DNA of 34,164 nucleotides, taken from a virus. Taxonomy: Duplodnaviria; Caudoviricetes. The stretch lies in the IMG/VR virus record IMGVR_UViG_3300037605_000034, positions 1 through 34,164 of that record; one strand, written 5' to 3'. The notes under the pieces are model-generated. The model worked only from the letters and a program-made list of their open reading frames with translations, was not told where the DNA came from and did no database searches. Shown piece by piece: positions 4,501-31,250 of the stretch (position 1 is the first letter of the stretch; each line of letters opens with the position of its first letter). Position numbers and translations under genes: made by a program.

Positions 4501-7500
4501 ACGAGCGAGAGCCTCTCGCTCGACACCTGGTATCACATAACCCTAACGCACGATGGAGCGACAACACGCCTCTACATCAATGGCCAACAACGCGGCAGTA
4601 GGAGCGAGTCGGCCGCGGCGTGTACGTCCGGCGCGATGCTGATCGGCAGTCGAAAAAATCTGAATCCCAATATTCGATGGGACGGGCTCATGGCCGATAT
4701 GGCCATATACCCCGTCGCCCTCACCGACACCCAGATCGCCCAGCTCTACCAGGCCCGCACCCGGCAGATCGGCTGGGAAACTTGGACGCCCGACACCGTC
4801 GGCACGGACCTCAAGCAAGTCTCCGCCGTCGTGTACGACGACGGCAACGCCGGCGGCAACTCCAACGTCACGCAAACCATCCAATACGTCGACGACACCA
4901 CCTGCCGCGTCACCGACTACCAATACGACTTCCGCGATCGCCGAATCGTTGAGGACGGCGAGCTCACGCACTACACCGAACTCACTTACGACAACCTCGA
5001 TCGACAGACCCGCACAGACCAACGCGATTCGACCGCCTCGGGCAACCTCATCGCACGATCCGAAACGTTCTACGACAACCGGTCCCGCGTCTACCAAACG
5101 AAAACCTACGACGTCGATCCCGCGACCGGTACCGTCGGCGTCGCGCTGATCGGCAACAACACCTACGACCCCGCGTCGAATCTCGTCGAGTCGATCGCGC
5201 CCGGGGCCGGCGTCGTCGCCAATTACACCACCTACGACAACCTCGGCCGGGCCACCCTCGCCGAGACCGGCTACGACGACGCGTCCGCGACGAACGGCCG
5301 GGTCGTCGTCGAGTCGCTCGCCACGACGTACAACGCCGCCGGCCAGGCCACCGCCGCGACCACCCGACGCCTCGACGCCGGCGCGACGCCGACCGCGCAG
5401 ACCTACCGCACCGGCTACGCCTTCTCCTGGTTCGACGCGATCGGCCGGCCGATCGCCGCCGCCGACTACGGCGCGCTCGGCTCCGCGCCGGCCCGCCCCG
5501 CCGCCGCTCCCGCGCGGTCCGACACCGTGCTCGTCACCACCGCCGCCTACAACGACCGCGGCGAGGCCTTTTCCAACACCGATCCGCAGGGCGTCGAGTC
5601 CCGGACCGTCTACGACGACCTCGGCCGAACCACCCGGGCCATCGACAACTACCAGGCCTCCGGCTCCGGCCCGGACGTCAACCGCACCACCGACACCGCT
5701 TACACCCCCGACGGACAGGTCAAGACCCTCACCGCGGTCGTGGGCACTTCCGGGGGCGCGGATAACCAGGTCACGACCTACGTCTACGGCACCACGATCT
5801 CCGGCGGGGCCGGCGGACAAGACTCCGCGCTCGCCACCAAGAATCTCCTTTTCGAGATCGTGTACCCGGACGGGACGCTGGGGTCGGACTCGGTTCGTTT
5901 TTCGTACAACCGTCAGGGTCAGCTGACGCGGCGGATCGACCAGGCGGGGACGACGCACGCCTATCTTTACGACGGGCTGGGTCGTCTGCGTCACGACTGC
6001 GTGACGTCGCCGGTGCCGGACGATAACGCGGCGATCCATCTGGGGGTGCGTCGTCTGACGACGGAGTACGAGGTGCGTGGGCTCCCGAGTCGTTTGTCGT
6101 CGTGCATGACGGCGGAGCCGAACGGCTCGGGCTCGGGCGGGGGCGTGGCGAATCAGGTGTTGCTCGAGTACAACGGGTTCGGGCAGCTGGTGGCGGATAT
6201 GCAGGAGCACAACGGGCCGGTGGATGCTTCCGGGGGCGGGGGCGGTTCGTTGAAGGTGCAATACACGTATGCGGACGGTTCCGGGGGGACGAACCAGGTC
6301 CGGCCGACGGGGGTGACGTATCCGGACGGGCGCGTCGTGGGCTACGGCTACGACACCGCGGGAAGTATCAACAATACGCTGAACCGTATCTACGACTTGG
6401 CGATGGACAACGCTTCGGTCGATATGTCGATCCGCTACGATTATTTAGGCATGTCGACGATCGTGAAGCAATCCGACGCGGACGAGAACGCTCCGACGAT
6501 GGACCTGTGGGGCGGGACCCCCGGAAGTTATGCGGGTCTGGATCGGTTCGATCGGGTGACGGACTTGCACTGGAAGGACGACGCTGTGACCCCGAACACG
6601 CTCGTTCAACTGGAGTACGGCTACGACCGGGACAGCATGCCGGCGTATCGGAAGGACACGGTGGCGCACGCGCTGGGCGCGGGCCAAGACGAGTTGTACA
6701 GCCGCGACGGGCTGCGGCGGTTGAACGACTACCAGCGCGGGCAACTCAGCGGCAGCAACGATTCGATCGCCCCCGGAACGGCGACGTTTAGCCAGGGCTT
6801 CACCTTGGACGAGGTGGCGAACTGGACCGCCTTCAATCAAGACAACGACGGTTCCGGCACGAACAACCTCGTGCAGACCCGCACGAACAATCAAGCCAAC
6901 GAGATCACCGGCATCACGAACTCTGTGGGCGGGTCGTGGGGCATCCCGACGTACGACGCGGCGGGCAACACGACGCGCACGCCCTCACCCGACGCTCCCA
7001 CCGACGCGACAAAAGACCGCCAGATGACGTACGACGCGTGGAACCGGGTCGTGCGCGTGACCGATAGCAACACCACCTTCGCGACGCCCGAGCTGTTGGC
7101 GTACTACGAGTACGATGCGCGGGGGTTCCGCATCCTCGACCACACGTACGGCAGCACGGGCAAAGCCGAGACGGCGACGCACCACTACTACACCAATAGC
7201 TGGCAGTGCATCGAGGAAAGAACCGTCGATCTGACCATATCCCCGCTGCCCGCGGCGCAACTCAGCGCGCAATACGTGTGGGGCCTGCGGTATGTGGATG
7301 ACCTGATCCAACGCCAACGCGACACCACGGGCAACGGCACACTCGACGAAACGCTCTACGTGATCAACGACCGCCAGTTCAATGTCGTCGCGCTGACGGA
7401 CACGAGCCAGACGGTCGTCCAGAGGATGAGCTACCAGCCTTACGGCAAAGTGGAATTCCTTACAGCCAGCTACGGTTCAAGCACCAATACTTACAACTGG

Positions 7501-8301
7501 CAACACCTGTTCCAAGGCCTAAGTCTTGACGTGACCGGCTTTATCGACAACCGAAACCGCATGCTTGGCACCCTCACCGGGCGATTTGGGCAGAACGACC
7601 CGCTCGACTATCCCGATGGGATGAACAGGTACGCGGCCTACCATGTGATGTTTGGGGGGTTAGATCCAACGGGACTTCAGACTCAAGAAGAGGAAGAGCC
7701 TCCTACCCATAGAAGTCCGAGTAATAGGCAAAATACGCATTCAGGCCATCAAACTGGTCCAAGAACGAATCCTTCCCAACACCAACGACAAGCACCCGGA
7801 AGTCCAGCCACTGGACAAGGAGCAACGAATAATACTAGAGCCAATCCCGGTGGCAATCGCGCTAATCCACCAAGAACAAGGCCTTCAAGCACATCACCTG
7901 CAACAAAATTTAGTATCAAACAGGGTCTTGCTGCACGCGTGGCACTGACGGGATATAACTCATATCTTAAGCAGGCAGGTGCAGTTCAACGAAGGGCACT
8001 TGCAGTAGCGCTGTGTATATATTTGCAACAAAAATGTGCAAATGGCAGTCTCGCAAATGGCAGAAAAAGTTTTAATGTTGCGTTGTCAACCCCTGCTCGT
8101 ATTGTTGGCGTGTATCATGTAAATATTGTCAGGCATAATGGAACTTGGTATGCAAATGCAACACATGTAGAGCAACATAATGTAAGAGTTAAAGCGCTTG
8201 GTTTTATTCCACTTTGGACTTATAAAACTGTGACTAAAACATTTGATGATCTACGCCATAATAATCAAAATAAAAAATGTCCTTTGAATTGCCTTATATA
8301 G
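1537..8301 (+). CDS. rhs: RHS/YD-repeat polymorphic toxin with internal LamG domain and variable C-terminal tip
   Basis: N-terminal NPVxxxTG and GYNW motifs (DUF6531-like); many YD repeats (YEYDDQGR, YEYDSLGRQT, YLYDGLGRL, TYDAWNRV); RHS core (YQPYG...FQG...RNR...GRFGQNDP...DGMNRY...DPTGL). ATG at 1537 preferred over TTG at 1486. Confidence 0.95.
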   Translation: MTTPVNESSGGRGCSPYENDSPCENPECCDDPGETANPVQYSTGTIKLIESDTSANVPGFSHRRVWRNAIVNHQDYDGPNGYNWDIDEWPYLVRRILGSKITINARIGSLQIRFDKVGSEYVPRHSKLGIYQLMHDSSNQIFVLTRRVGRGIDTIQFQDFDQTANPVGLLKKRIDQDGYVTEVTSYTVDGNINGLVTERSGSVFELAYSYHNSGTHLNRLEHVTLNELDQYPSPTTTTSIRRSRYTYYDGSNGYGLANDLKASITQKYEGSSWVDIDVQYYRYYTTDSGIGYEHGLKYAVGPASYAEIVEAGQDPLAGVPTGSDQVPNYADHYFEYDASRRVTKEVARGCASCGTSGGTSSTGDTFSRIKNPDYPSSVASEYRYNIWMTKTVSRNHDGRETIVYTNRVNRVIFEVKRELDTAGARREWCTYYEYDDQGREIMRAEPSAVIGYDEKLPDLVGKQSASSYTYLRSDAGMVHLKTWYTSTTATPTTAGGAEGYAESMSIKKGIQGTEIKTGLYTYFASDNTSGDKTYVVAESIEYPDETNQDSTRFTTSYGYAWYPPTGDKAVMLKERVTTLPAISASQNGDGTSATTRAYFDQDGNLTWTMDERGIITKMVYDDPRDLITQMVEDIGTVSGTGAPSWTPTAGGHFGYTTDYEYDSLGRQTQVLGPEHDADVAGAATTLRTAMYTLHVESPVADQGLGEPPIGDQVRTAQGYATGSPGSYAYTLIDPVAITFADKLGRTLNRVISKRTTGTGRLDEADTFDRADWSRWSMTHYSAKGLLDYQRDYHVIPVQSPDNGLVGVNDDPGVVTTNFNETFHGYDIDTNLRVRTKTPDGTVRRTIYDKMDRVSSTWIGTNDDPDPLPTPDAQWPLTDTTTDSSAATDVSGKGNSATPVSFTSMDFKTGPAGYGNAALSFDGTGYLTAPHILDPAAGAFSASCWVRAEQLVENRMILDQDDGGGIGQRWLYLLTTGQLATAISGTAWATSESLSLDTWYHITLTHDGATTRLYINGQQRGSRSESAAACTSGAMLIGSRKNLNPNIRWDGLMADMAIYPVALTDTQIAQLYQARTRQIGWETWTPDTVGTDLKQVSAVVYDDGNAGGNSNVTQTIQYVDDTTCRVTDYQYDFRDRRIVEDGELTHYTELTYDNLDRQTRTDQRDSTASGNLIARSETFYDNRSRVYQTKTYDVDPATGTVGVALIGNNTYDPASNLVESIAPGAGVVANYTTYDNLGRATLAETGYDDASATNGRVVVESLATTYNAAGQATAATTRRLDAGATPTAQTYRTGYAFSWFDAIGRPIAAADYGALGSAPARPAAAPARSDTVLVTTAAYNDRGEAFSNTDPQGVESRTVYDDLGRTTRAIDNYQASGSGPDVNRTTDTAYTPDGQVKTLTAVVGTSGGADNQVTTYVYGTTISGGAGGQDSALATKNLLFEIVYPDGTLGSDSVRFSYNRQGQLTRRIDQAGTTHAYLYDGLGRLRHDCVTSPVPDDNAAIHLGVRRLTTEYEVRGLPSRLSSCMTAEPNGSGSGGGVANQVLLEYNGFGQLVADMQEHNGPVDASGGGGGSLKVQYTYADGSGGTNQVRPTGVTYPDGRVVGYGYDTAGSINNTLNRIYDLAMDNASVDMSIRYDYLGMSTIVKQSDADENAPTMDLWGGTPGSYAGLDRFDRVTDLHWKDDAVTPNTLVQLEYGYDRDSMPAYRKDTVAHALGAGQDELYSRDGLRRLNDYQRGQLSGSNDSIAPGTATFSQGFTLDEVANWTAFNQDNDGSGTNNLVQTRTNNQANEITGITNSVGGSWGIPTYDAAGNTTRTPSPDAPTDATKDRQMTYDAWNRVVRVTDSNTTFATPELLAYYEYDARGFRILDHTYGSTGKAETATHHYYTNSWQCIEERTVDLTISPLPAAQLSAQYVWGLRYVDDLIQRQRDTTGNGTLDETLYVINDRQFNVVALTDTSQTVVQRMSYQPYGKVEFLTASYGSSTNTYNWQHLFQGLSLDVTGFIDNRNRMLGTLTGRFGQNDPLDYPDGMNRYAAYHVMFGGLDPTGLQTQEEEEPPTHRSPSNRQNTHSGHQTGPRTNPSQHQRQAPGSPATGQGATNNTRANPGGNRANPPRTRPSSTSPATKFSIKQGLAARVALTGYNSYLKQAGAVQRRALAVALCIYLQQKCANGSLANGRKSFNVALSTPARIVGVYHVNIVRHNGTWYANATHVEQHNVRVKALGFIPLWTYKTVTKTFDDLRHNNQNKKCPLNCLI
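4144..4755 (+). other. LamG / concanavalin A-like lectin domain inside the RHS protein
   Basis: AQWPL..D.SGKGN...ALSFDG...FSASCWV...WYHITLTHDG..RLYING...IG...WDG.MADMAIY..ALT..QI.QLY matches the Laminin_G_3 pattern. Confidence 0.9.
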
Positions 8302-8330
8302 GAAACTTTAAACTTCATGGCTACTATATT

Positions 8331-8834
8331 ATGAGATATGTAAAAATAGCCCCCATCGTACTACTAATTCTTGCTGTTGGATTTACAATTGGCCGGATAA
8401 GCAAGAATCAAAAGCCAATTGATTCGGTATTAGATCATGAAAAATTATTTAGTGGGAGTATGAATTCTTCAGAATCGCAGCTATTGCTAGATAAATGGAT
8501 TGAAAATGAGCAAATGAGAATGATAAGTGTTTTGAATTCATTTGCAGACATGCCAGCAACAGACAAAATATCAGATGATATTAAGCTGAATATTTCACAT
8601 GCGATGTTAAGCCATCCTTATTTGACGGAAGGTATAGAAACGCTGTCATTAGCTTCAGCTACCGAACAAAAAATGGAAAATCGAGATGCCTGTCTTCAGG
8701 TAATCGAATACCTGATTTATGAGACTTTGCCAAGTGTGGCAAAGATATTAGAAAATACTATGCAAAATGAGACTGATCGAGGTTTGCTAGAAAGAAAGCA
8801 AGCAGTAGTTGATTCTATCGAAAAAGTTGAGTAA
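8331..8834 (+). CDS. Putative cognate immunity protein (N-terminal signal/TM anchor, helical body)
   Basis: Directly downstream of the toxin tip with the same AT-rich composition; MRYVKIAPIVLLILAVGFTIG signal/TM; ATG at 8331 preferred over the overlapping 8277. Confidence 0.75.
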   Translation: MRYVKIAPIVLLILAVGFTIGRISKNQKPIDSVLDHEKLFSGSMNSSESQLLLDKWIENEQMRMISVLNSFADMPATDKISDDIKLNISHAMLSHPYLTEGIETLSLASATEQKMENRDACLQVIEYLIYETLPSVAKILENTMQNETDRGLLERKQAVVDSIEKVE

Positions 8835-8871
8835 CAAAAAAGACCGCTAAAAGTGTCGGGCGATTGACGTA

Positions 8872-9291
8872 GGAGCCTTTCGATAAATCCCACTTGCATG
8901 CTGCCGCATCTGGCGCTACAAGGGTGTGATGGAACGAGCAAGCAAGGGACTGACGTTGGCCGACGGGCTTTTGGCGGATTTGGGTGGGCCTCGCACGGCT
9001 GGGTTGCTGGCGCGTTTGGACGCGGTGACGCCTTGGGATGAACTCGCTGCGGTGGTCAAGCTGTTGTACCGCAACGACACGGCCAAGGGAGGTCGGCCCA
9101 ACGTGCCGGTCGTCGTCATGCTCAAGGTCACGCTGATGCAGCGTTGGTTCGGCCTAAGTGATCCGGCGATGGAAGAGGCGGTCCTGGATCGGCTTAGCTT
9201 CCGTCGGTTCCTCGGGCTGGGCGCGGCGGACGAGGGCATCGACCATTCGACGATCGCGTTGTTCCGCGAGCGGCTGCACGACGCGGGGCTT
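8872..9291 (+). pseudogene. Truncated IS5-family element: candidate left end plus N-terminal transposase domain (DUF772/InsH-N)
   Basis: From ATG 8929: PW......LY......GRP...MLK...QRWFGLSDPAMEE...DRLSFRRFLGL.....DHSTI..FRERL. Similarity stops at ~9291 with no DDE domain. Candidate terminal repeat GGAGCCTTTCGATAAA at 8872; no partner seen. Confidence 0.85.
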
Positions 9292-9327
9292 CCGCATCCT
9301 CGAATACGCCAACGCAGGCCACGGCTA

Positions 9328-9357
9328 TTGACGTCGGCACTATGCCGCGTAGATACT
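9328..9357 (+). promoter_or_regulatory. Candidate sigma70 promoter for a leaderless transcript starting at ATG 9364
   Basis: TTGACG (9328-9333), 18-nt spacer, GATACT (9352-9357); the A of the ATG lies 7 nt after the -10; CGGCA-CTA-TGCCG palindrome in the spacer. Confidence 0.45.
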
Positions 9358-9363
9358 ATTTCG

Positions 9364-10455
9364 ATGAGTCAGGCATCCAGACGAGCATCAAGCCCAAGCC
9401 CGTATAAGCTACGCATTCACCGCGTGTTTGATCGCACGCCGATCAGCTACCTTGGGTTGCAAACGATTCAAAACGCGGCGGTGATGACGGAACCGATGTA
9501 TGAGTTGATGATGGCTCTGCGTGATAAGCGGCTGGACCAGATGATGCCGAGCTTGCCGCCGATCGAGGATTGGCTATCTCTATATCGGAATCACCGACGG
9601 ATCACGATCGGCTTAGGCGACGCATATCCGTCGCTTTTGGGAGTGGATGGTGAAGCGGCCCAATCGTTACTGGATGACGCCAGAGCAATTAGCCGCGAGT
9701 CGCGACTGAACCGAGACGCGTTGACACGAGCGATCTGCGGTGAGCTAAATCCTAGAAAGCTATCGCAGGTCATACGAATTGCGCACAAGGAGGCGCGACG
9801 AGATTACGCTCGACACTTGAACGAGTTGCGTTGTTTTCTACGGGATGACACTTACGACGAAGAGGAAAGCCGAGAGTTCGGAGTGGCGTTGGAGCAGTCC
9901 GCTGAGATTTATTTTTATGTGCGCGTGGTCTTGCCTGCGATGCTGCTTTGGCAGACGACGCCAACGCAGCTTCTACGCATGTCGAGGGGATCGCGAGGCG
10001 AGCAAGCCCAGGCTGTCGCGATCGAACGATTGTTGAGGCTTGATCCGATGGCCATCTATTTACGAGAAGTCCATCGCTGGGTCAATGTGTCCGACGGCAC
10101 AATCCGTACGCAGCGGTATGATCTTCAGAATCAGTGGCGGACGCAGGGTGTCGACAGCGGCCGAATCAGCAGAAGGCAATTCAAGCAGCTCATGGGGGCA
10201 ATGATTCAATCGACTGCGAGCCGTGTCGGGGCCTATTTCGATCTTGCTAAAGGGTGGCGGAAAACACAGCTGACTGCGGCCGACGTACGAGGTGTGTTTG
10301 ATGCGGTGGCTCAAGATCGGTCCAAGCGAGTGCGTGGTGTCGTTGACAAAGACATCGCGGACATACAAGCGGATTCGTGGAGCAAACAGATACGGCGGTA
10401 TAGAGACTGCTGGAATCAACTCCTACCCGAGGTACCCGGACCGAACGTGTCGTGA
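9364..10455 (+). CDS. Hypothetical protein (363 aa), helical, family not recognised
   Basis: 3' part of the 509-aa ORF; independent ATG at 9364 behind its own promoter-like sequence. Confidence 0.7.
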   Translation: MSQASRRASSPSPYKLRIHRVFDRTPISYLGLQTIQNAAVMTEPMYELMMALRDKRLDQMMPSLPPIEDWLSLYRNHRRITIGLGDAYPSLLGVDGEAAQSLLDDARAISRESRLNRDALTRAICGELNPRKLSQVIRIAHKEARRDYARHLNELRCFLRDDTYDEEESREFGVALEQSAEIYFYVRVVLPAMLLWQTTPTQLLRMSRGSRGEQAQAVAIERLLRLDPMAIYLREVHRWVNVSDGTIRTQRYDLQNQWRTQGVDSGRISRRQFKQLMGAMIQSTASRVGAYFDLAKGWRKTQLTAADVRGVFDAVAQDRSKRVRGVVDKDIADIQADSWSKQIRRYRDCWNQLLPEVPGPNVS

Positions 10456-10488
10456 CTTTTGTCCGGTGCTTGATGCTTGCGATGCAAG

Positions 10489-10779
10489 ATGCTGACATCC
10501 GTGAACACACGGAAAGAAACAGCACGAGTTGCGGCAACATGGGAAATCATCAAGACGCTTGAGCCGTTCGAGTCGAGCCGCATTCCGGCGGCCGACCGGC
10601 GGCGTCTTCTGGCGAGATTGATCGCACATGATCTGGTCGAAACGACTCGCCTTAATACGGTAGAGGCCCAAAGAGGCTCTGAGGACGCGAAGAACGCCGC
10701 CCGGCGGTGCGGAAACGCGCTTGCCGCGTGTTCCTCACCGCTGGGCGGCGAAGATTGCCCGAGTCAGGGGGGCAAGTGA
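10489..10779 (+). CDS. Small hypothetical protein
   Basis: ATG at 10489; its TGA overlaps the GTG of the rep gene (GTGA). Confidence 0.5.
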   Translation: MLTSVNTRKETARVAATWEIIKTLEPFESSRIPAADRRRLLARLIAHDLVETTRLNTVEAQRGSEDAKNAARRCGNALAACSSPLGGEDCPSQGGK

Positions 10780-10793
10780 CTAACAGCCCCCCT
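10766..10793 (+). other. Candidate double-strand origin / nick-site hairpin
   Basis: Perfect 8-bp inverted repeat AGGGGGGC / GCCCCCCT around loop AAGTGACTAACA; CTAACAGCC resembles the pT181-family nick sequence CT^AATAGCC and the CTAA nic of MOB-T origins; overlaps the rep start. Confidence 0.65.
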
Positions 10794-12008
10794 TCTAACG
10801 TGAAATTGTCACCCGATGAGTATGGGAGAGTCCTTGCTTCGGGCATTGACTCACTTGCCGTATCCATCCAGGTGGAGTGGTTGACCGAGATCCTGTTCAC
10901 CAAGCTTGCCGAATTGAAGCGAACCGCCAAGAGCGAGCATGAGGATCAACCGGGCGTCATCGATCCAGGCTTCGGCGCGGCCTCGTGGCTGTTCAGTGTG
11001 TCGCCTTCTGGCACGGATGGCTATGAATGGGTGCTCAAGGGTCGCGAGATGACAATGAAGATCGGAAATTGGAACGAGTTGAAGCAGCGCCCTAGCGTGC
11101 TGGCAGACATCCGGTCAGAGACTTTGTGGGCGCATGGGCCGGATGCGTGTATTCAGCGGCTGCACGATCTGATTCAAGCGATGCAGGGAAAAATCATCGC
11201 ACTCAAGCCGAGCCGGGTTGATCTGTGTGTTGACCTGCTGCTGCGTGAGATTGATTGGGTGCCGAGCCTCTTGGATGGCTTTGTGACGCGTGCCCGTGAT
11301 ATCGATCCGCATTACCAGAGCCGTCAGTTGTCCGGCTTCTCCATCGGTAAGGGTGCTGTTGCGGCTAGGCTCTACGACAAGCCGCGCGAGATCCGGGTGA
11401 AGTCTAAAAAATTCTGGATGTATGACATCTGGGGCATCGAGTCCGAAGCCGAGGATCACCGGGTCATCCGTGTTGAGTTTCAAACGCGGCGGGAGGCGCT
11501 GCATGAGATGGGCATCGAGACCTACCCTGACCTGGCCGAGCAGTTGCCCGCTCTCTGGGCTTACCTGACGCGGAAGTGGCTGAGGGTGGCGATGGATGCC
11601 AGCCTGCACCATACCCAGCAGATCATTCGGCCGTGGTGGCCAATCGTCGAGCGGGGCTTTGATGGCGCCCAGCAGGCCACGCCGATTGTTCGGGAGAAAG
11701 CCATCTCGACGGATCTCAATCGCCACAGTGCTCAACTCTTAGGGCTTGTGTCATCCATCACCGCGCTACAGCGGCAGGGAATCCTCGTCAGCAAAGATGA
11801 ATCACTCGATTTGGATTCGCATGTGGCGGTGATCGTTGACATGGTGAGGAAGAATGCCGCCATAGATGATGATCAGTTCACCGAACGGGTGAAACGTAAG
11901 CAGGTCAAACAACTGCGTGCGGGTGTGGATTTCTCTGATGCCCCTGGCGCGAAACCGGCCGGTGCGGTATCTTCAAGGCGAACAAATCGCCGGAGGCAAT
12001 CGCCATGA
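10776..12008 (+). CDS. Replication initiation factor, Rep_trans-like (rolling-circle initiator/relaxase)
   Basis: Motifs PPSN, SGIDSL, SRVDLCVD, GFSIG....ARLYDK..EI (candidate catalytic Tyr), RVEFQ.RRE.L; GTG start at 10776. Confidence 0.8.
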   Translation: MTNSPPSNVKLSPDEYGRVLASGIDSLAVSIQVEWLTEILFTKLAELKRTAKSEHEDQPGVIDPGFGAASWLFSVSPSGTDGYEWVLKGREMTMKIGNWNELKQRPSVLADIRSETLWAHGPDACIQRLHDLIQAMQGKIIALKPSRVDLCVDLLLREIDWVPSLLDGFVTRARDIDPHYQSRQLSGFSIGKGAVAARLYDKPREIRVKSKKFWMYDIWGIESEAEDHRVIRVEFQTRREALHEMGIETYPDLAEQLPALWAYLTRKWLRVAMDASLHHTQQIIRPWWPIVERGFDGAQQATPIVREKAISTDLNRHSAQLLGLVSSITALQRQGILVSKDESLDLDSHVAVIVDMVRKNAAIDDDQFTERVKRKQVKQLRAGVDFSDAPGAKPAGAVSSRRTNRRRQSP

Positions 12009-13729
12009 CGTCCGCTATTGGTTACATCCGCCGTTCAACTGACAAGCAGGAAGAATCCCTCGATCAGCAGCGGGCCAAGCTCGAAGCTTTCGCCAAGGGC
12101 AAGGGCTGGACGCTCACGGCGATCTACTGCGACGATGCGATCAGTGGTAGTGATATGAAACGGCCGGGCCTGGAACGCCTGATGTCTGACGCAACAAGCC
12201 GCGACGATATCGATGTTGTCCTAGCGTGGGACCGCAACCGGATCGCCAGGCCCAAAGATCCGCTCGATGGCATGATGTTAGAACGTCGATTGTCTGATGC
12301 GGGTAAGCGGGTGGTCTATGCGGGGACCGGGATCGAGACGGATCGCTCGTTCACCTCCGGCCTGATCGGTTACATCGAGCACCACCAGAACGGCGACTAC
12401 CTCCGCAAGCTCTCGCGCGACACGATGCGGGGGCTCGTTGAACGTGCCAAGCGTGGTCTTTGGCCCGGTGGTCCGATCCCCTTCGGCTATGACCGATTGA
12501 TACTCGACGGCGACAAGCCTCGGCGTATTGTTCGGGATATTGAGGATGGCGGGCAGGTCGTGCTTGATGCCGAGTCCGGGCGTGAACTGGAACGGTTGCC
12601 TAAGGGTAAAAGCCACCGCAAGCAGGATCACGAATCGTGCTCGCTAATTCCCTCTGAACCTCAACGGGTCCGAGCATTGCAAGGTATCTTCGAAGACTTC
12701 GCAGCAGGCAAGCCAACCCGTACACTCCGCGATGATCTGAACGCGGCGGGGTTCCGTACTTCTCGCGGTAGTTACTTCACGGTCCAGACGCTGCTGCCGA
12801 TCCTTGAGAATCAAGCCTATCTCGGTAGATGCGTCTACAACCAGCGGACTTTGAGCAAGTGGCACCGATACCGGGATGGGACCAGTGTCGAGCGAGTCGA
12901 TGAGGGTGTCGAGCATCGCGGGTCTGAGGATTGGGTGACCTGTGATGATGCCTGGCCCGCTCTCGTTTCGGATGAACTATTCAAGCAAGTTCAACAGCGG
13001 CGCAAAGATTCACGCGAACGCAACAGCCATCGACGCGGTCCCGCCATGCGTAGCGAGTACCTGCTGACCGGGCTGATGTTCTGCGGCGTCTGTGGCGGCA
13101 AGCTTGGCGGGCATACTTACAAGAACACAAAAGGGATTAAGACGCGTTACTACGTTTGCTCACGCAACTCGTCTGGCCATAAGCACGAATGCCCCAAGCG
13201 GTACACGGTGCCAGCCAAGTTGGTTGAAGGTCATATCCTCGGGCTGATTCGCCAGGACCTTGCCGCTCTGCGTGACGATGACCAGCTGCACCGGATGATC
13301 GCCAAGGAACTGGAACGCCTCGCTGGGGGCCAGTCGGATGCCCGCGATCAGTTAAGCCGACAACTCGCCAGCCTCGACCAGCAGGCCGCGACGGTACGCG
13401 AGCACCTCATGTCGATGGACGCTGATACGGCCAAGGCACTCGGCCTTTATGACAACGCCAAGACTCTATCCGAAGAGTACGCCCAGGTCGCAGAACAACT
13501 CGCCAAGCTGCCTGACACGTGTCCCGCCTTACCGTCGCCTGATCTGATCCGTGAACGTGCTGCAGCTGAGTTTGATCGCCTGGAACACGTTGTGAGTTCT
13601 GCAACGGTGGAAGAAAAGCGAGAGCTAATCGCCTGCTATGTCCAAAAGATAAAGGCTGATCCGGACCTTCAATCGGTCGAGATCAGCCTGTATCCAACTC
13701 TCTTGAGTCAAAAAATAGTGTGGTCGTAA
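12005..13729 (+). CDS. Large serine recombinase (resolvase + recombinase + Zn ribbon + coiled coil)
   Basis: YIRRSTDKQ (catalytic Ser), D..ISG...RPGL, DRNRIAR, GG..PFGY, LLTGL.FCGVCG...YYVC...C, C-terminal coiled coil. Confidence 0.95.
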   Translation: MTSAIGYIRRSTDKQEESLDQQRAKLEAFAKGKGWTLTAIYCDDAISGSDMKRPGLERLMSDATSRDDIDVVLAWDRNRIARPKDPLDGMMLERRLSDAGKRVVYAGTGIETDRSFTSGLIGYIEHHQNGDYLRKLSRDTMRGLVERAKRGLWPGGPIPFGYDRLILDGDKPRRIVRDIEDGGQVVLDAESGRELERLPKGKSHRKQDHESCSLIPSEPQRVRALQGIFEDFAAGKPTRTLRDDLNAAGFRTSRGSYFTVQTLLPILENQAYLGRCVYNQRTLSKWHRYRDGTSVERVDEGVEHRGSEDWVTCDDAWPALVSDELFKQVQQRRKDSRERNSHRRGPAMRSEYLLTGLMFCGVCGGKLGGHTYKNTKGIKTRYYVCSRNSSGHKHECPKRYTVPAKLVEGHILGLIRQDLAALRDDDQLHRMIAKELERLAGGQSDARDQLSRQLASLDQQAATVREHLMSMDADTAKALGLYDNAKTLSEEYAQVAEQLAKLPDTCPALPSPDLIRERAAAEFDRLEHVVSSATVEEKRELIACYVQKIKADPDLQSVEISLYPTLLSQKIVWS

Positions 13730-13909
13730 CCGTTGGCAGTGGCCTGTTTCCACTCCGGCTGCTTACATGCCAACTCCGCCCAGAAAATCCTGCCATCTGG
13801 CTGATATTTATGAATCAGAGACACCAACTTGCACTTTTGTAGTGGGCACCGCTCAATAGGAGCGTCCGGCCACAAGCGGCTATCAACGCAAAATTAGAGG
13901 TGCCAACAC

Positions 13910-14104
13910 ATGCTTAGAGACCCAGACAGGATGACCATGGAAGAACGAGATAAAGAAATTTCACATCTGCTTGGTAAGGGACTTCTCCGATGGCATAGAT
14001 TTAATAAGCGACTCAATAATCGACCGTCCGATGCGATGCCCAGAGGCAGCAAGGCAGAGGATATTGATGCCCCACCGACGAGTAATGACGAGACGAAGCA
14101 TTGA
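13910..14104 (+). CDS. Small hypothetical protein (MTxEERxxEI..LL.KG type)
   Basis: AGAGGTG RBS-like sequence upstream; resembles small genes I recall preceding DUF2924/serine-recombinase modules. Confidence 0.5.
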   Translation: MLRDPDRMTMEERDKEISHLLGKGLLRWHRFNKRLNNRPSDAMPRGSKAEDIDAPPTSNDETKH

Positions 14105-14129
14105 TTTTTTCAATAACGCCACTCCACGT

Positions 14130-15932
14130 CTACGCGTCTGAATGAATCACATCGTCACTTTCGATGGTAAGTACGCCGGCAATTTGCTTGAGACGCGCTT
14201 TAATCAGTTGTTCCCTGGCATCGAAGAACTCTAGAAAGTTTTCTTTTAGCCATAATCGAGGCTCCGCGGGGATCAGGTGGCGATCGAGAAAGCTCTTGTC
14301 TCGGGTCGCGAGCCACTCACCGAACGGCTGATCTGACTTGCCTTGATTCTCATTCGACATAAGGAGGGCCAGATTCCCTAATCGGTTTTTCCTACCAACC
14401 CATTTCCATCGTTGCTCAGACTCAAGGCCAAGGTCCTGCAACGACTTGTCACGGAACATAGCCTGGGGAAAAAGATGGTCGGTATGGTGCGGGATTGTTC
14501 CCCACCCGTTCTCGTCGTAGAGCAGCGTCAATGCCAAGAAGGTTAGCTTTCTGCCGTAATTCAGTTGAAGGACATTTTCAATAGCAAACTGATCGAATGC
14601 CGCAGTTCTGCCTGCCTTCGCGATAACACGGTTGAGATTCTCTGCTGGAAAGTTCGCCTCCGGATCGGGACTCCGTCCCAACTCGGTGCGCATATCACGG
14701 AGTATATTGTCTGAAGCGCCACCAAAAACCTGATTGAGTAATGAGGCGATCAGCCACCGCCTGATCAAGCCTGCGTTGCGAACTTCAAAGGCAGACGTGC
14801 CGCGTAGCGTCAAGCCTGGCCGCCGAAAGAGGTAGTAGATGACCGGAATAAGCGCATTAGCACTCGTCAGGTTGTCTCGGTCAATACCGTATGAGTTTGC
14901 GAGGTCAACGCCGCGCTCGATCGCGGATTTGATCTCAGGCCATGAAGTTTGAATAAGTCCAAGATTCTGATTGTTAAAGTTCTGGACTCGATAGGCCACG
15001 GGCAGGTCTGTCAAGACCAAGCAGGCTTTCATGATGAAGTCTTTGTCGAAGCTGTTATGCCGCGTCAGATCATCATTAATATGGTCCACGAATCCGAAAA
15101 TCTCGTCTCTTGCATTCATCGTGCCCCATTTTGAAGTGACCATCGATAACAAGAGGTCCGACTTGCTGAGCTTGGTTCCGCCCTCGTTGGCACGAACAAA
15201 AATGTCAAGGACACGGTCGTAGTTCTGATCACGCTCAGTGTAATAAGCCACGACCTCATCTTTAAAGATTGCCTCGTAGAGTCGTCTGAGGTTCCTCCTG
15301 AAAGTGCGTATTTGCCCTTTTGTAACAGACTCCGGCAAGCGATCTTCTTCTGCGTCGATGAAATCATCCAAGTTATCCTCGGTCTCGACATCCAAAATAC
15401 GTCCGACCCGAAACCAATATCGACCGTCTTCCTTGGGGGCCGGCTCGGCGAAGAAGTTGAAGTGGTAATAGAGTCCTGCTTCGGTATCCATCGCATCGTC
15501 ATCAGGCTCGATTGGATCTTTGAGAAGATCGAGAAACAATCGCTGCTTGACCCATGCAGATGGATCATCCCACCTTTTGTACTTTTTCTTCACCGTGTAG
15601 AAGCCACGTAGCCCAACAAGTAATGAAGTCAGCCTCTGCTGTCCATCAAGGATCAACGTAAGTCCATGAACACCATCAGTCGTTGCCACTTCGTTATGAC
15701 TGCCGCCTTGCTTGCCGTGTTCGAGGAACTTGTACGCCTCCCAGTTATCTCGATTCTCCGGATCAAGTTCCCAAAACAGAAATGAGCCAATGGGATAGCG
15801 CCGTAAAATTGAGTCGAAGAGTTGGATAATCTGTTCTGGCTTCCAGACGTACTCTCGCTGGATCGCGGGAAGGAAATACTGGTGGTTGAGTTTGGCGACG
15901 GTCGTCGCGACTGATTCTGAGCGATAGCTCAT
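14130..15932 (-). CDS. GmrSD-like type IV restriction protein (DUF262 + DUF1524/HNH-like)
   Basis: LPAIQREYVW, DS..RRYPIGS.L.W, LDGQQRLTSL, F.R.N.GG..LS; C-terminal HTDHLFPQ...NRLGNL.LL...N..KSD; ATG at 15932 preferred. Confidence 0.88.
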   Translation of the reverse strand: MSYRSESVATTVAKLNHQYFLPAIQREYVWKPEQIIQLFDSILRRYPIGSFLFWELDPENRDNWEAYKFLEHGKQGGSHNEVATTDGVHGLTLILDGQQRLTSLLVGLRGFYTVKKKYKRWDDPSAWVKQRLFLDLLKDPIEPDDDAMDTEAGLYYHFNFFAEPAPKEDGRYWFRVGRILDVETEDNLDDFIDAEEDRLPESVTKGQIRTFRRNLRRLYEAIFKDEVVAYYTERDQNYDRVLDIFVRANEGGTKLSKSDLLLSMVTSKWGTMNARDEIFGFVDHINDDLTRHNSFDKDFIMKACLVLTDLPVAYRVQNFNNQNLGLIQTSWPEIKSAIERGVDLANSYGIDRDNLTSANALIPVIYYLFRRPGLTLRGTSAFEVRNAGLIRRWLIASLLNQVFGGASDNILRDMRTELGRSPDPEANFPAENLNRVIAKAGRTAAFDQFAIENVLQLNYGRKLTFLALTLLYDENGWGTIPHHTDHLFPQAMFRDKSLQDLGLESEQRWKWVGRKNRLGNLALLMSNENQGKSDQPFGEWLATRDKSFLDRHLIPAEPRLWLKENFLEFFDAREQLIKARLKQIAGVLTIESDDVIHSDA

Positions 15933-16073: not shown

Positions 16074-16580
16074 TTACCCTGTTGAGTCGTCTGCGTGAAG
16101 CGATCCATCGGGCCACCAACCGAAAGGACAATCTTCCGCAAGATCGCGGGCCTTCTTCTCGAGGATGCATCCACATGTCCCATTGCCCGAACCTCGCATC
16201 GATTCGAGCATGGGACCGCAGGTGTGGAGCTCATTGTCTCGCCAGATGGCATGCCCACCCGGGCATTGCCGACACACATTGAGGCGGGCTTCAACCTGCT
16301 CGTTGCTGGCTCGCTCGATACCGAGGGTGGTTTTGGCCACGCTCTTGCTTGCGTGTGCCACCGCGCTGATGACATTGAGCGCCTGCCGCTTGGGGCTTAG
16401 CTTCAGAGCAGGCGTTGGGTCGTCGCCACGTAGGACCTGCTTCCAGGTCTCGGGCACAAAGCACCAGGCCGTCCCTTCTTCCTTAAGTCGGGCTCGCTTG
16501 GCGCGGTCGATCAGCGTCGGGTCACGGCGACGGCTGACCTGCTCGATGTATTCGATTGGGATTTTGATTTCGTCTGCCAT
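16074..16580 (-). CDS. Phage Cys-rich/Zn-binding protein (DUF6171-like C-terminus)
   Basis: R...CRQCP...TCG...TCGC....K......CP.G.W pattern typical of small phage Cys proteins. Confidence 0.7.
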   Translation of the reverse strand: MADEIKIPIEYIEQVSRRRDPTLIDRAKRARLKEEGTAWCFVPETWKQVLRGDDPTPALKLSPKRQALNVISAVAHASKSVAKTTLGIERASNEQVEARLNVCRQCPGGHAIWRDNELHTCGPMLESMRGSGNGTCGCILEKKARDLAEDCPFGWWPDGSLHADDSTG

Positions 16581-16600
16581 TTAGCCAAGGCAGGACCCTT

Positions 16601-16834
16601 CACGGTTGTTATCCCGCCGGCTCTTTATCCAGCGGTTCTACGGCTCTCGCCGCAGGTCGGACTATCTCTTCCCCCTTCCGGGGGTCGGGCGCTCGTGGAG
16701 GCGATTACTGTCCGGTCTGGACTCGGCCTCTAGTCTCTGCACCTTCCGAAGCGTTCCCGCCTCGGCTTGGCTCAGGGTTGCCCTCGTCTTTACGTTAGGG
16801 GTTTCCCTGAATTCACCCGATATGGCCAATGTTT
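16601..16834 (-). ncRNA. ORF-less group I intron/ribozyme (234 nt)
   Basis: Minus strand: P3 TCGGGTG(16820-14)/CGCCCGA(16691-85); P4 TCAGGG/CCCTGA; P5; P6 GCC/GGT with P6a closed by GGAA; P7 GAGACTA(16737-31)/TAGTCC(16664-59); P7.1 GAGGC/GCCTC; P8 CCCCC-GGAA-GGGGG; J8/7 AAGAGA; P9 CTGCGGC-GAGA-GCCGTAG; P9.1 CCGCTGG/CCGGCGG; P9.0 AC/GT before omega-G at 16601. P, Q, R and S elements resemble trnL/Azoarcus introns. 5' boundary less certain. Confidence 0.92.
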
Positions 16835-16851
16835 AGTTTCCAGTCTCCTTT

Positions 16852-19239
16852 CTATTCACAACAGTTGATATGGACGCCAAGCACATCTGCCCAGCCGTCG
16901 GACTCGGGGTATGCGCTGCCGTCGGCGTACTTGTCGTACGACGACAGCCGAACATGCACGATCAGCGTGAACGAAGTGCCCGGCGCGGGCAGCCCGCTTT
17001 GCACACACCCGTACAGCGTGGCGAGGTCTGGGGTAAACCATGTTGAGCCGGTTTCCCATCCACCGATTCCGCAGGCTTCGTACCAGAGCGGTTCATCATC
17101 AAGAAGCGATCCTTGTGGGCGATCGCATGCGGCGTATTGGTTTGCGTCGTATCCCGATCGGAACGGCCCATTCGTACAGGGGTTGCGGCCGACATGATTG
17201 GTCACGACCGTGACTTGGCCACCGACCTCAGTAAAGCCGGTGCCGTCGTGTGAGATGCAAGGCCAGGTGATCAATCGGTGACAAACGCGGTGGTCGGGCT
17301 TACGTGCCTTGTAGTCTTCGTAGGTTTCGCCGGGCTGGATCGGGATGTGGCCAGCCATGTTGCCCGATACGTTTGCGGCTGCGCAAGAGGCAGACGTGTG
17401 GCACTCGATACAGGGCTCGTCAGGTGGACAATCGTCCATGACTTCGGTCACGTTGACGGGATTGATCGGCCCGCCCGGATCGCCTTCAAAGACCTTCCAC
17501 CAGACACCGCTGTGCTTCACGGCCTTGCCAACGACTGCGGCCAAGTCTGTGCGCGTTGCCCCCCAGATCAATCCGGGGTCATCGCACCTGGCCAGGAAGT
17601 AGATCGGCCCGCATTCGTCGCGTCGGAAGAGACTGCACGCCGCGTTCGAGTTGGGTGCCCGCCTTTCTCTGGCATCAACGATCGCAACGGCTTGTCCAGC
17701 GGCGGGAAGTGTCAGCCTGCCGGGGTGACGCACGCGGTGGCATTTCCCGTCGTGCTTTCCCGCGATGATCTTGGTGTGCCTTGGCAACTGCACCCACTTG
17801 TTGGTGGTGCCTTGGCCGCACTCCCAGAGCCGGAACCAACGCTTGGATGGCGGCGGCGGGTTCTCGCCACCACCGGGCCCTCCACCACCGCCACCTCCAC
17901 CGGGCGGGTTCGGTGGGTTCCAGCCAAAGCATTCCGCGCAAGAGACAAACGCGGGGCCGATACGTTGGAGCACATCTGCATCGGCGGGGATGACGGTGCT
18001 TGCTTCAAACGGATCGATCCAGACGCAATACCCACGGTGCTCAAAGCGTGTGAGCTTGTCGGGGAGCTTGGAGTTGGGCACCCAGGTGTCGCGCCAGTTC
18101 CGGGCATCTTGTCCTGGGCACAAACGAACCGGAACCCCGGATAGGCCGGGGCAGTTGGGATTAAGTTGTCCGCCACAGATGCAGGCGAGGCAGGAATCGA
18201 ATTGGCATCGCGGCGTGATCTGGATGGCATCGGTGGGGATGCGATTCGCCGCAGTATTGAGATCAAGCCTGTGGCACGTCCCGGCGATACGCTGATAGAT
18301 CGTGGTCAGGCCGGGGTAGTCCAGTTGCAACGCATCGATCGCTTCCTTAGTTGCCCAATACGCAATCCCAGTATCCTTCGCGTCTGGGCACAAGACGAAC
18401 GGAACGCCGAGGTTGCAGGTGTTGCATGGCTGATCAACTGTTGGTCTAAGGAGTCTGGCGTCGTCGGGGATGACAGCAGAAGGAGCGGTTTGTTTTTCAT
18501 AGCACCAGCCGCTGTATTCAAATCCATCGGGTGTATCAGGCAGATCTGCTTGTCTGATCCAGACCTCGGGCGCATCGGCCGCATTGGGTAGCGCCTGGTC
18601 GGCCGGGCAAAGCGTTTGCTTAACACCGTGGGTACAGGTCGTGCAGTCGTCTTGAGGATTGCCCAGTCCGATCCAGAAGGCGGGGTCTGGATCAGACACC
18701 ACCGGCCCGGTGGGCACGTTGATGCAGATGCCGCCGTTATCAAAGACACCCTGCTGACCACGCTCGGTGTCGCTGGGTAAGTAGAGGTTGTTCACATCCC
18801 AGCCGCGGGCAATCGCCTTGGGTACGTGATCGGCACAGACGGTCGCCTTGATGCCTTGGGGCTGTTCATCGGGCCATGGCCACGCGCCTCCGCCGTCACC
18901 ACCACCAGCGCCGCCCCCGGCCCCACCCCCCGCGCCACCGCCGCCGGGGAATCCTTCACCTGCATCTTCGCTTGCACTCTCACAGCTGGTGCAGTCGTCC
19001 CATGGGAACGGCCCACGGTAGGCATAGATGCCATCGCCTTGCGGCATGCAGATGCGTTCACCGGCCGGATCGATGGTCCAGCAGTTACGGCTCTCATCGT
19101 CTTGCGTGTCGAGTTCAAAACGCTGAACTGCAGCAGGTAGATCGTCCTCGTGGACAAAGACGCGCAGGTCCGAGGTGTTGTTTGTGCACTTGGTCGCCTC
19201 AACCCAGACGGCACAGTTTTGGCAGCGTGGCCAACTCAT
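16852..19239 (-). CDS. Cys-repeat, Gly-linker protein (795 aa) at the tail-fibre/receptor-binding position
   Basis: ATG at 19239 overlaps the upstream TGA (ATGA); about seven degenerate ~55-65-aa units C...(W/F)...GxC...CxxC; two poly-Gly linkers. Confidence 0.8.
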   Translation of the reverse strand: MSWPRCQNCAVWVEATKCTNNTSDLRVFVHEDDLPAAVQRFELDTQDDESRNCWTIDPAGERICMPQGDGIYAYRGPFPWDDCTSCESASEDAGEGFPGGGGAGGGAGGGAGGGDGGGAWPWPDEQPQGIKATVCADHVPKAIARGWDVNNLYLPSDTERGQQGVFDNGGICINVPTGPVVSDPDPAFWIGLGNPQDDCTTCTHGVKQTLCPADQALPNAADAPEVWIRQADLPDTPDGFEYSGWCYEKQTAPSAVIPDDARLLRPTVDQPCNTCNLGVPFVLCPDAKDTGIAYWATKEAIDALQLDYPGLTTIYQRIAGTCHRLDLNTAANRIPTDAIQITPRCQFDSCLACICGGQLNPNCPGLSGVPVRLCPGQDARNWRDTWVPNSKLPDKLTRFEHRGYCVWIDPFEASTVIPADADVLQRIGPAFVSCAECFGWNPPNPPGGGGGGGGPGGGENPPPPSKRWFRLWECGQGTTNKWVQLPRHTKIIAGKHDGKCHRVRHPGRLTLPAAGQAVAIVDARERRAPNSNAACSLFRRDECGPIYFLARCDDPGLIWGATRTDLAAVVGKAVKHSGVWWKVFEGDPGGPINPVNVTEVMDDCPPDEPCIECHTSASCAAANVSGNMAGHIPIQPGETYEDYKARKPDHRVCHRLITWPCISHDGTGFTEVGGQVTVVTNHVGRNPCTNGPFRSGYDANQYAACDRPQGSLLDDEPLWYEACGIGGWETGSTWFTPDLATLYGCVQSGLPAPGTSFTLIVHVRLSSYDKYADGSAYPESDGWADVLGVHINCCE

Positions 19240-20147
19240 GGGCTGCCTCCCTCGCATGGGCCGTCCGCGTTGTTGATGGCCTGGAAGACATGCTCGACGG
19301 CTTGAGTCTCGCAGTTGATCTCGGGTGTGACCTGAACCACCGCACCCGCCCCGATCGGCTGGATCGAAACCCCTGCGGGCAGTTGGTCGACATTGATGCC
19401 GCAGCCTTGCACGCCCGTCGCGCTGTTGTTCGCTTCGATCGTGTTGTAGGCCGTCCCATTCAATCCGTCTGGAACTGCCGCCCAGGTCCCGGCCTGCTGG
19501 TACTTCATCTGCGTGAACGGGTACGACCACCGGTTATCGCCGATCGAGGTTGCTCCGCCCAGCATGGCCCAGAACCAATCACCCCCGGATGTTGTGCCGA
19601 GATTGACCAGTGCCCAAACGACCGTTGATCCAGATCCACTTCCGGGGTCGTGCCAGATGATTTGGGTGCCGGGCTTGCCGGATTCGAGTTTGGCGGTATC
19701 GCCGTCGATCACGCCGGCGGTCGTATGCGTGTCATCAAGCAGGTCGATCTGCACCGGGCAGATGCCGTTGACGTAGGCCCGGCCAATCCCCGAGGCGGGC
19801 AAGGGGTCGAGCAGGACCGCGAAGTGGCCCGCCGCTGCGTGCTGATCCTCTGTCGGCGTGACGACGGATAGCGCGACCTGACGCAGGAATTCATCAAGGT
19901 GATCGCCGGGCAGGATGATCGGGCCGTTGATCCCGACAACCGCGTTGCGGGCGAGATCAGCCCCGGAATCATTGCGGACCAGGACGATGCCGGTTTGTTT
20001 CGTCCCGGCGGTTGCGGGGATGGGGCCACGGCTGCCGGCCTGCTGCTCGTAGTAGGCGCGTGTCGCATCGACGATCTTGTTCCAATCGGTGGCTGGGATA
20101 CGAAGCGGGCTGCCGCTTTGGACGTGACGCAACTGTGTCATCGTCAC
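19236..20147 (-). CDS. Putative distal tail/tip protein
   Basis: Second gene after tape measure, overlap-coupled on both sides; beta-rich composition. Confidence 0.7.
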   Translation of the reverse strand: MTMTQLRHVQSGSPLRIPATDWNKIVDATRAYYEQQAGSRGPIPATAGTKQTGIVLVRNDSGADLARNAVVGINGPIILPGDHLDEFLRQVALSVVTPTEDQHAAAGHFAVLLDPLPASGIGRAYVNGICPVQIDLLDDTHTTAGVIDGDTAKLESGKPGTQIIWHDPGSGSGSTVVWALVNLGTTSGGDWFWAMLGGATSIGDNRWSYPFTQMKYQQAGTWAAVPDGLNGTAYNTIEANNSATGVQGCGINVDQLPAGVSIQPIGAGAVVQVTPEINCETQAVEHVFQAINNADGPCEGGSP

Positions 20148-30472: not shown

Positions 30473-30684
30473 TACGCGGCCCCCGGTGGAATGAGTTTGG
30501 TGGTCTTCATCCCCAAGCCCGCCTTGCGCGTGGCCTGCTTGGACGCGAGATAGCGGTCCGCCGCGATCTGGTCGGCAATACTGTGCTGCTCGACAGACTG
30601 GCCATCGACGCTCGCTTTGGCAGGGCCAGCGGCGTTGTCGTGGATGCTCTGATCCAGCGGATCGATTTGATTGGATTCAGGCAA
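30472..30684 (-). CDS. Small head-completion protein (gpW-like position)
   Basis: GP..A.VDG.SVEQHS..DQI.ADRYL; stop overlaps the portal start. Confidence 0.75.
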   Translation of the reverse strand: MPESNQIDPLDQSIHDNAAGPAKASVDGQSVEQHSIADQIAADRYLASKQATRKAGLGMKTTKLIPPGAA

Positions 30685-30800
30685 GGCGGTGTCCTAGAAG
30701 GGAGAAGTCCCTACAGGTCACCTATGCCGTCAATTTACAGATCACCCATGCAAGAAGTGCAAGGCTGAAAACGTATCCGTATATGGAACTTGCTGTCGCT

Positions 30801-31124: not shown

Positions 31125-31250
31125 GAGATCAAACCTTCCTCGGCAGTTTGTCTGCGACTGGGATCGTTCAGTCATCCTGCCTTGATTCACTCGGGCCTGT
31201 CGCCACGCTTCGTACTTGAACGTGAATTCGACCTGCCACACCCATGACAT
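31125..31250 (-). pseudogene. Probable remnant of a HigB/gp49-like toxin gene
   Basis: (V)WQVEFT..YEAW resembles the N-terminus of gp49/HigB toxins, but only ~40 codons remain before the antitoxin ATG. Confidence 0.55.

Follow-up and report, generated by a model that had tools for sequence, protein, structure and literature searches.

The 34,164-nt window analysed here, which is a whole linear virus record (G000) estimated to be 72% complete, carries a group I ribozyme whose guide sequence pairs with a target downstream of the ribozyme, and the same permuted order recurs in other phage lineages. The permuted phage group I family is real and recurrent, it is apparently undescribed, and a function can be proposed for it from sequence. 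The core is intact, P2 is absent, pairing is downstream through a U.G wobble, guide and target covary, and the site is intergenic, past a stop codon. That the permuted guide-target pairing is real can be held with great confidence, and it is likely that these are natural group I ribozymes permuted in loop L1, which would add a G to the downstream RNA, split the operon message and circularise a mini-exon.

The minus strand of the window encodes a lambda-like head and tail module in the order terminase, portal, protease-capsid, tail tube and tape measure, downstream of which lie three genes without assignment, an 892-aa gene reaching to 16852, a 271-nt gap and a 168-aa gene. The ribozyme sits between the last two genes, at the end of the phage tail module and between a stop and a start codon, and the gap carries the sole Rfam match of the record (RF00028). 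The 892-aa product has no Pfam or PHROG match, and its stop codon ends 24 nt ahead of the wobble G, while the AUG of the 168-aa gene stands 2 nt past the predicted cut. The 168-aa Cys-rich protein has 51 homologues among 102 candidates, and its matches in the protein atlas are hypothetical phage clusters only. A search for a sigma-70 promoter or a minus-strand terminator near the ribozyme found neither. Elsewhere in the window, HTH and DUF6932 genes, some on the opposite strand, are inserted between terminase and portal (30472-32600), and the stretch 1486-15929, in which a GmrSD-type restriction gene directly follows the phage genes and which also encodes a large serine recombinase, a DUF772 transposase and a 2271-aa laminin-G protein, is probably a prophage edge with host DNA. 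The features of the ribozyme region are as follows.

16852..19530, minus strand: gene ahead of the ribozyme, an open frame of 892 aa whose start is uncertain; the final long gene past the tape-measure and tail genes
16845..16851, minus strand: orphan SD-like sequence AAAGGAG, shared with L002 and L007
16832..16836, minus strand: upstream CTAAA copy, without conservation and with no role in the mechanism
16823..16829, minus strand: internal guide sequence (IGS) UUGGCCA, wobble G at 16827, 7 nt ahead of P3
16601..16820, minus strand: group I ribozyme body without P2 (RF00028; helices read from the sequence)
16820-16814/16691-16685, minus strand: core helix P3
16810-16805/16777-16772, minus strand: core helix P4
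16737-16731/16664-16659, minus strand: P7, with the guanosine-binding pair G16735-C16660
16601..16603, minus strand: omega-G (3' splice site) at 16601, with P9.0 pairing GU to AC 16657-16656 (family motif)
16583..16600, minus strand: 18-nt mini-exon between the reversed splice sites, a hairpin then GGCU; predicted circle
16581..16587, minus strand: P1 target UGGCU|AA, guanosine attack predicted between 16583 and 16582
16572..16596, minus strand: alternative hairpin hiding the AUG, with a CUGCC/GGCAG core and the P1 target in its loop (computed folding)
16074..16580, minus strand: downstream gene, Cys-rich phage protein of 168 aa (phrog_13558, E 2.8e-6)

The RF00028 match scores 77 bits (cut-off 50; E 4.5e-18; model span 16879-16638). 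The core helices P3-P4-P6-P7-P8 and the conserved joining segments (J8-7) are present, and the body also shows an insertion between P7 and P3, P8 and P9-type hairpins; the core looks intact, and GTP-dependent activity is predicted. The Rfam 5' boundary at 16879 was rejected, as it builds P1/P2 from the last part of the upstream gene, and standard intron annotation overlooks a permuted layout because the model forces a 5' P1. With P2 missing, the guide leads straight into P3, and its wobble G, 7 nt ahead of P3, stands in the register in which the canonical P2-less introns L201 and L205 pair an upstream U. The rejoined exons of L201 and L205 form a T-arm-like stem-loop (judged by eye), and ARAGORN called no gene on either of the two spliced sequences. 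Omega-G at 16601 fits both the UAACA..G ending of canonical relatives and the P9.0 AC/GU pairing; with omega-G at 16591 or 16586, ordinary splicing would leave SD and AUG close together, and both placements were rejected because the relatives put omega-G after UAACA.

Guide and downstream target form 7 bp with U16583 opposite G16827 as the U.G wobble, and the two U's of the IGS serve P1 extension and P10. All coordinates of the first-pass annotation of this DNA, including those of the IGS, the target, the CTAAA copies, AAAGGAG and the 18-nt stretch 16600-16583, were read as given there, and its claim that the guide pairs best downstream was borne out: downstream pairing is computed at -8.6 kcal/mol (-10.0 when the bulged AUG extension is included), versus -2.9 upstream, where pairing is weak and without conservation. 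Within 60 nt, the best upstream helix has three pairs (-5.0 versus -11.8 downstream). A 7-mer match alone is only modestly unlikely because the 34-kb minus strand contains 19 wobble-tolerant and six exact matches to the guide; among 282 40-nt flank windows, none other pairs equally well (fraction 0.004, pseudocount included). The window shows neither a canonical upstream P1 with its U.G in the 5' exon nor a gene interruption that exon ligation would restore, the position being stop-to-start, and the order of sites is permuted, with omega-G preceding the U.G site by 18 nt. No homing endonuclease ORF lies within or beside the 220-nt body, and the flanking genes have no nuclease match.

Relatives were collected by several scans. 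A generic core scan, covering 122 of about 320 loci, gave three cores (L011, L099, and L122) with the short 5' end of the window ribozyme and a downstream match. A pattern scan for G-S-C-N-N-W-A ahead of P3, blind to the 3' flank, yielded 15 matches in viral, 37 in genome and 33 in metagenome sequences, and looser viral scans yielded 16 and 42. Two of the 37 genome-collection matches were ribozymes (L152 and L165) and the others chance; most of the non-ribozyme matches from the metagenome scan were removed for want of P4-P6 motifs, and the 42 loci of the looser viral scan were canonical P2-containing introns with no new permuted member. Core-less chance matches, duplicates, P2-containing introns and incomplete loci (L007/L140, L144, and L186) were left out, and 16 complete lineages were kept, among them the window and L133b, which was spotted by eye next to L133a. 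The first-pass annotation had named a lack of 3'-flank complementarity in homologues as evidence against its permuted intron-exon layout; the reverse was found, with a U.G-register helix 67-87 nt past P7 in 11 of the 16 lineages (window/L002, the L137 group, L132, L133a, L133b, L139/L145, L184, L187, L188, L191, and L221). Three lineages have an upstream site (L185, L201, and L205), and two fit neither arrangement (L152 and L196). The latter two are P2-less and show neither layout at the 7-nt register; L152, from a Tepidisphaeraceae genome, matches strongly upstream as well as 88 nt past P7 in an 8-nt register. In 152 genomes from one sample, an RNA model (R1) gave 11 matches, with the P2-less type only in L152.

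Guide and target change together across these lineages. The +1 pair is A-U or C-G, with C-G in L139 and A-U in L145 at one gene junction; the -2 pair is C-G or G-C, plus A-U in L388; the -4 pair is G-C, A-U or U-A; and the -5 pair is U-A, G-C, A-U or C-G. Variable positions are Watson-Crick in 42 of 60 cases versus 26.3 +/- 3.2 with partners swapped, a value reached by none of 20,000 trials, and guide pairing ranked against the 40-nt windows of each locus gave p <=0.12 in 10/16 (Fisher P 7e-6 including five misses); these P values are optimistic because each target was selected for matching its guide best, the 40-nt window was chosen post hoc, the scan pattern fixed the guide letters G-S-C and the lineages share kinship. 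The covariation of IGS and downstream flank that had been proposed as a check is thus seen as compensatory changes at +1, -2, -4 and -5, and homologues with covarying guides and targets remove the reading, also raised earlier, of a 7-bp chance match. Action in trans on an invariant host target (tRNA T-loops) was also considered and discounted, since the guide tracks its own downstream site through three -2 states.

Further members came from a target-anchored scan (94 loci) and a re-scan of 109 distinct complete cores under looser criteria, the latter yielding L326, a third copy of the L139 junction, and L353. Both were chosen via their targets and excluded from the statistics, as was a member in Flavobacterium phage immuto (L388); with L353 and L388 as later lineages, the total is 13. 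The immuto member (L388 857-1080; vB_FspM_immuto_2-6A MW353175.1 about 145040-145260; also in MW353176.1 and MW353177.1) has a 6-bp helix with A-U at -2, no upstream helix and a wobble G 12 nt ahead of P3, and the fixed guide-to-P3 spacing of the scans must have missed members. The immuto member is flanked by gene 225 on one side and a terminator-like hairpin on the other, lies two genes past the tail fibre gene, and is unannotated, a spurious 44-aa "hypothetical protein" being called over it. In blastn searches of four members against cultured phages there was no full-length match, and immuto alone held up; a lead in Dor1 was rejected as a DNA polymerase intron. ORFs are absent from all of the aligned members.

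In group I chemistry, the bond 3' of the U.G pair is attacked by GTP, and the U released in this way then attacks after omega-G. Applied to the window, free GTP would in the first step attack past U16583, releasing a downstream RNA that consists of the added G, two A's and the AUG onward and that would be 5'-triphosphorylated where GTP is the cofactor. In the second step, the freed U-OH would attack past omega-G, giving a circle and an upstream RNA ending in the folded ribozyme. The passages of PMC11417360 on group I ribozymes summarise this two-step chemistry. Cutting in vivo is predicted with good confidence, and circle formation is predicted at somewhat better than even chances. Less firmly, the operon message would be divided, with the upstream cistrons gaining a structured 3' end, and in the window phage the cut would open the AUG-hiding hairpin, the last gene then being read as a near-leaderless message.

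Evidence on the second step comes from the mini-exons, which measure 15-28 nt across the lineages (omega-G called by eye) and may be too short for P1 and P10 to form together. In the window, AAGG 16600-16597 can pair with CCUU 16590-16587, and a hairpin that opens at exon base 1-3 and closes 2-6 nt ahead of the cut occurs in 8/12 lineages versus 2.7 expected (P about 0.0007, with the criterion fixed after inspection); single exon hairpins are no stronger than shuffles (p 0.02-1.0). Such a hairpin would draw the two splice sites together. The first P10 pair, between the first exon base and the guide base 5' of the wobble G, forms in 10/12 lineages, and P10 pairs total 19 versus 10.2 expected (182/20,000), with omega-G called by eye and twice placed at the second G of GG, a choice favouring P10. 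The window has two P10 pairs; in L137 and L221 there are four, and the 5' strand of the exon can switch from its hairpin partner to the guide. These pairs suggest that the ligation step is retained, which is the weaker part of the case. It is improbable, yet the most serious of the alternatives, that the reaction halts after G addition because the exon hairpin masks the start of the 3' exon, so that no circle forms and the element is a GTP-dependent mRNA-cutting ribozyme akin in spirit to the lariat-capping ribozyme. In favour of such a halt, the hairpin occupies the bases that P10 needs in the same 8/12 lineages, P10 has zero or one pair in 7/12, and the exons are very short; the retained omega-G and P9.0-like ends, the four P10 pairs of L137 and L221 and the tracking of the guide by the first pair argue against it.

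The surroundings of the cut are constant on one side only. A co-oriented upstream gene stops 0-43 nt ahead of the wobble G in 10/13 lineages, while a long ORF starts within 10 nt of the cut in only 6/13: 2 nt past it in the window, the L137 group and L191, 7 nt past it in L221, and 3, 7 and 10 nt past it at the shared junction of L326, L145 and L139, respectively. In L187, the sixth of these lineages, the predicted cut falls inside the UUG (1738-1741) that opens a Cys-rich gene. Two lineages (L188 and L388) have a terminator-like hairpin past the cut, one (L133b) has a convergent portal gene, and four (L132, L133a, L184, and L353) have no near start. Past the cut in L132, two candidate targets lie 7 nt apart and an open frame extends out of the exon into a Cys-rich gene that lacks a nearby AUG. 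Named genes downstream of permuted members encode a virion protein, a baseplate hub and a glycosyltransferase. Because the position past a stop, and not that ahead of a start, is constant, the shared role may be to divide the message and protect the upstream 3' end. The earlier proposal of a nearly leaderless mRNA would fit the window, with its start 2 nt past the cut, but extends to fewer than half of the lineages.

For the window phage itself, a switch-on of the last gene is given somewhat less than even chances. The AUG-hiding hairpin has a computed energy of -10.1 kcal/mol in context and -8.0 in another computation, and the unpaired fraction of the start region rises from 0.22 before the cut to 0.78 after it. 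L002 has such a hairpin too, but start accessibility gains at least 0.15 upon cutting at only 5/11 loci, and the lineages share no usable 5' splice site upstream, so that the switch between P1 and start-codon sequestration suggested in the first pass is local at most. In the parts of PMC4611024 that treat leaderless translation, a 5'-phosphorylated AUG end is required; G addition would supply a phosphorylated 5' end, which a small self-cleaving ribozyme would not. In L187, the cut within UUG would leave the added G as part of a 5'-terminal GUG, an idea weakened because the same parts state that GUG cannot replace AUG on leaderless mRNA in E. coli.

The closest relatives, L002 and L007, place the ribozyme behind the same upstream gene as the window and retain the IGS and AAAGGAG, whereas the intervening 8-10 nt vary and lack both CU|AA and CTAAA, the upstream side keeping AAA only. 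In L002, the downstream exon and target are identical to the window letter for letter; the L007 sequence ends ahead of the downstream target. Run X1, possibly the source of this record, contains two variants identical across 16552-16617 and differing at 16836 and 16840, and the RNA runs X23 and X24 (2 of 24 runs) each contain 0.04 of the words. A 49%-identical relative of the last gene, in L003, has no ribozyme and has an SD ahead of an overlapping stop/start, and the ribozyme was therefore probably inserted between the SD and AUG of the last gene; AAAGGAG is probably the ribosome site of the 168-aa gene from before the ribozyme arrived.

This SD bears on a second alternative, a switch resembling the c-di-GMP-II ribozyme in which splicing from an upstream site would join the orphan SD to the AUG (on) and G attack downstream would remove the SD (off). 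AAAGGAG is retained in 3/3 close relatives, a weak upstream helix (two pairs and a wobble) can be drawn in the window and L002, and the targets of L139 and L145 are themselves SD-like and stand 7-10 nt ahead of the AUG, so cutting could lower translation. The switch is nevertheless very unlikely, given that ligation at omega-G would leave about 23 nt from SD to AUG, that L007 lacks a U at the upstream position, that the window has no riboswitch match, RF00028 alone among Rfam models reaching its cut-off, and that 24 nt between stop codon and guide are all that would be available for an undescribed aptamer. An upstream helix of comparable strength within 60 nt is, moreover, absent in 10/11 permuted lineages, the exception, L133b, sharing the site of its tandem neighbour.

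Still less credible is a conventional intron whose 5' splice site is distant or encoded in trans, or else a relic in decay; in either case, the downstream match would be incidental. Equally good upstream matches within 1.5 kb do exist in 10 of 16 loci having a downstream site, four canonical P2-less sisters (L185, L186, L201, and L205) are known from the survey, and the permuted cores do not form one clade, monophyly being rejected (p-AU 0.0098) in a low-resolution tree of 56 rows and 171 columns that omits L133b, L326, L353 and L388. Those upstream matches, however, lie within genes at scattered, unrelated distances, with none in the window or L002, whereas the downstream site is confined to a 20-nt band and covaries; in the window, splicing could not fuse frames because an in-frame TAA precedes the AUG. 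Finally, the 252-bp DNA unit bounded by CTAAA repeats (the second copy at 16584-16580) that was proposed in the first pass, and that would turn the last gene on if it excised or circularised so as to join SD and ATG, finds its repeat in the window and an SD directly ahead of the overlapping stop/start in ribozyme-free L003, but is scarcely conceivable, as the upstream copy is absent from L002 and L007, the repeat is unseen in other lineages and no joint skipping the ribozyme was found in 4/4 DNA runs (contigs only, and contigs drop rare forms).

Returning to the permuted ribozyme, its layout, as read from the sequence, is that of a canonical intron opened in loop L1. The most likely origin is from canonical P2-less introns via tandem or circular intermediates, possibly more than once. 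In L133 (1000-1539, minus strand), two permuted ribozymes stand in tandem, 48 nt apart and abutting a convergent T4-like portal gene, and the second guide can pair with the upstream site of the first unit (-8.6) or with its own downstream site (-9.2); this pair illustrates from nature how canonical forms could turn into permuted ones and back.

Several other group I loci were noted during the survey. L133b, L144 and L185 share a TGTTCTTTAA motif immediately 5' of the guide, resembling the boxA antitermination element, together with promoter-like A/T hexamers, and these copies may be transcribed independently; the upstream match of L185 may fall in the promoter, so L185 is possibly not canonical. 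Group I introns of L186, L205, L201 and L006 occupy T-loop-like positions of tmRNA/tRNA-like genes; the L205 intron is long, with omega-G 621 nt past P7, and L006 overlaps an Rfam tmRNA match. Many loci between L010 and L131 represent one conserved phage gene (frames FPKxLGAELYRPHP) with group I introns at neighbouring sites in dozens of contigs.

Among these introns, L186, L201 and L205 share with the permuted members a compact 5' end, a G 7 nt ahead of P3 and G-CCC-type guides, and differ in having a 5' splice site 8-15 nt upstream of the guide. The C. difficile c-di-GMP-II ribozyme reportedly has an alternative attack site near the start codon. Like the window ribozyme, it is a group I element in an untranslated region, there controlling translation, and forms arising by GTP attack are mentioned in the relevant sections of PMC9495366 and PMC3649979; it differs in its working upstream 5' splice site and riboswitch, neither of which was found in the window. 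The lariat-capping ribozyme (GIR1), as outlined in a passage of PMC8637638, is likewise group I-derived and provides the mRNA that follows it with a new, protected 5' end. It does so by one-step branching with a divergent fold, whereas the window ribozyme has a standard core with a G-binding pair and a U.G site, and G addition is therefore expected.

Natural circular permutation has been described for group II introns and one coral mitochondrial group I intron permuted via a giant insertion. The group II examples are natural and bacterial, with reversed splice sites <100 nt apart, no encoded protein, a small circle as product and a role described as an open question in the main account of them (Roth et al., 2021, PMC8637638). 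The phage elements resemble them in their reversed, closely spaced sites, lack of an ORF and predicted circle, and differ in their group I chemistry, by which the RNA would be cut and gain a G, and in abutting stop and often start codons in operons. Chi et al. (2019, PMC6545197) present the mushroom-coral mitochondrial intron ND5-717 as the first group I intron found to back-splice naturally; like it, with its circular exon intermediate, the phage family is a natural group I intron on a permuted precursor. In ND5-717, an insertion of 18-19 kb interrupts P8, and the gene is made whole by back-splicing (PMC6545197), whereas the phage family is opened in L1, with a contiguous core and a non-coding 15-28-nt exon. 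A 2023 list of natural permutations has no group I entry in its relevant section (PMC10085705), and a phage or bacterial permuted group I family was not found in the literature searched (open-licence PMC and bioRxiv).

The order of intron, 3' splice site, exon and 5' splice site is also that of the PIE, CIRC and cis-splicing systems, as these are described in the pertinent parts of PMC12336344 and PMC11417360. An engineered intact intron ahead of a 3'-exon...5'-exon unit circularises (PMC12336344, in the same part), and the intact intron ahead of the exon in CIRC corresponds to the state predicted past step 1 in the phage family. PIE and CIRC are laboratory designs with large payloads, whereas the phage family is natural, has a mini-exon and is embedded in mRNA. 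It is conceivable, though held as less than an even chance, that the family is a widespread phage ribozyme class acting as an RNA-only operon processor, one that cuts polycistronic messages at gene boundaries and caps the downstream part with a triphosphorylated G, making it resemble a newly initiated, near-leaderless transcript, and that sheds circles and possibly acts in trans; if so, circles of 15-28 nt would be among the smallest natural circular RNAs, and the omega-G-ended ribozyme on the upstream RNA could act anew in trans. If the permuted reading is true, group I chemistry would serve gene-boundary cleavage with G addition, beyond intron removal, which would suggest a role for permuted ribozymes. 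The family is readily testable, with RNAs of about 260 nt and one member in a cultured phage, and would be a natural counterpart to the PIE and CIRC constructs for circular RNA.
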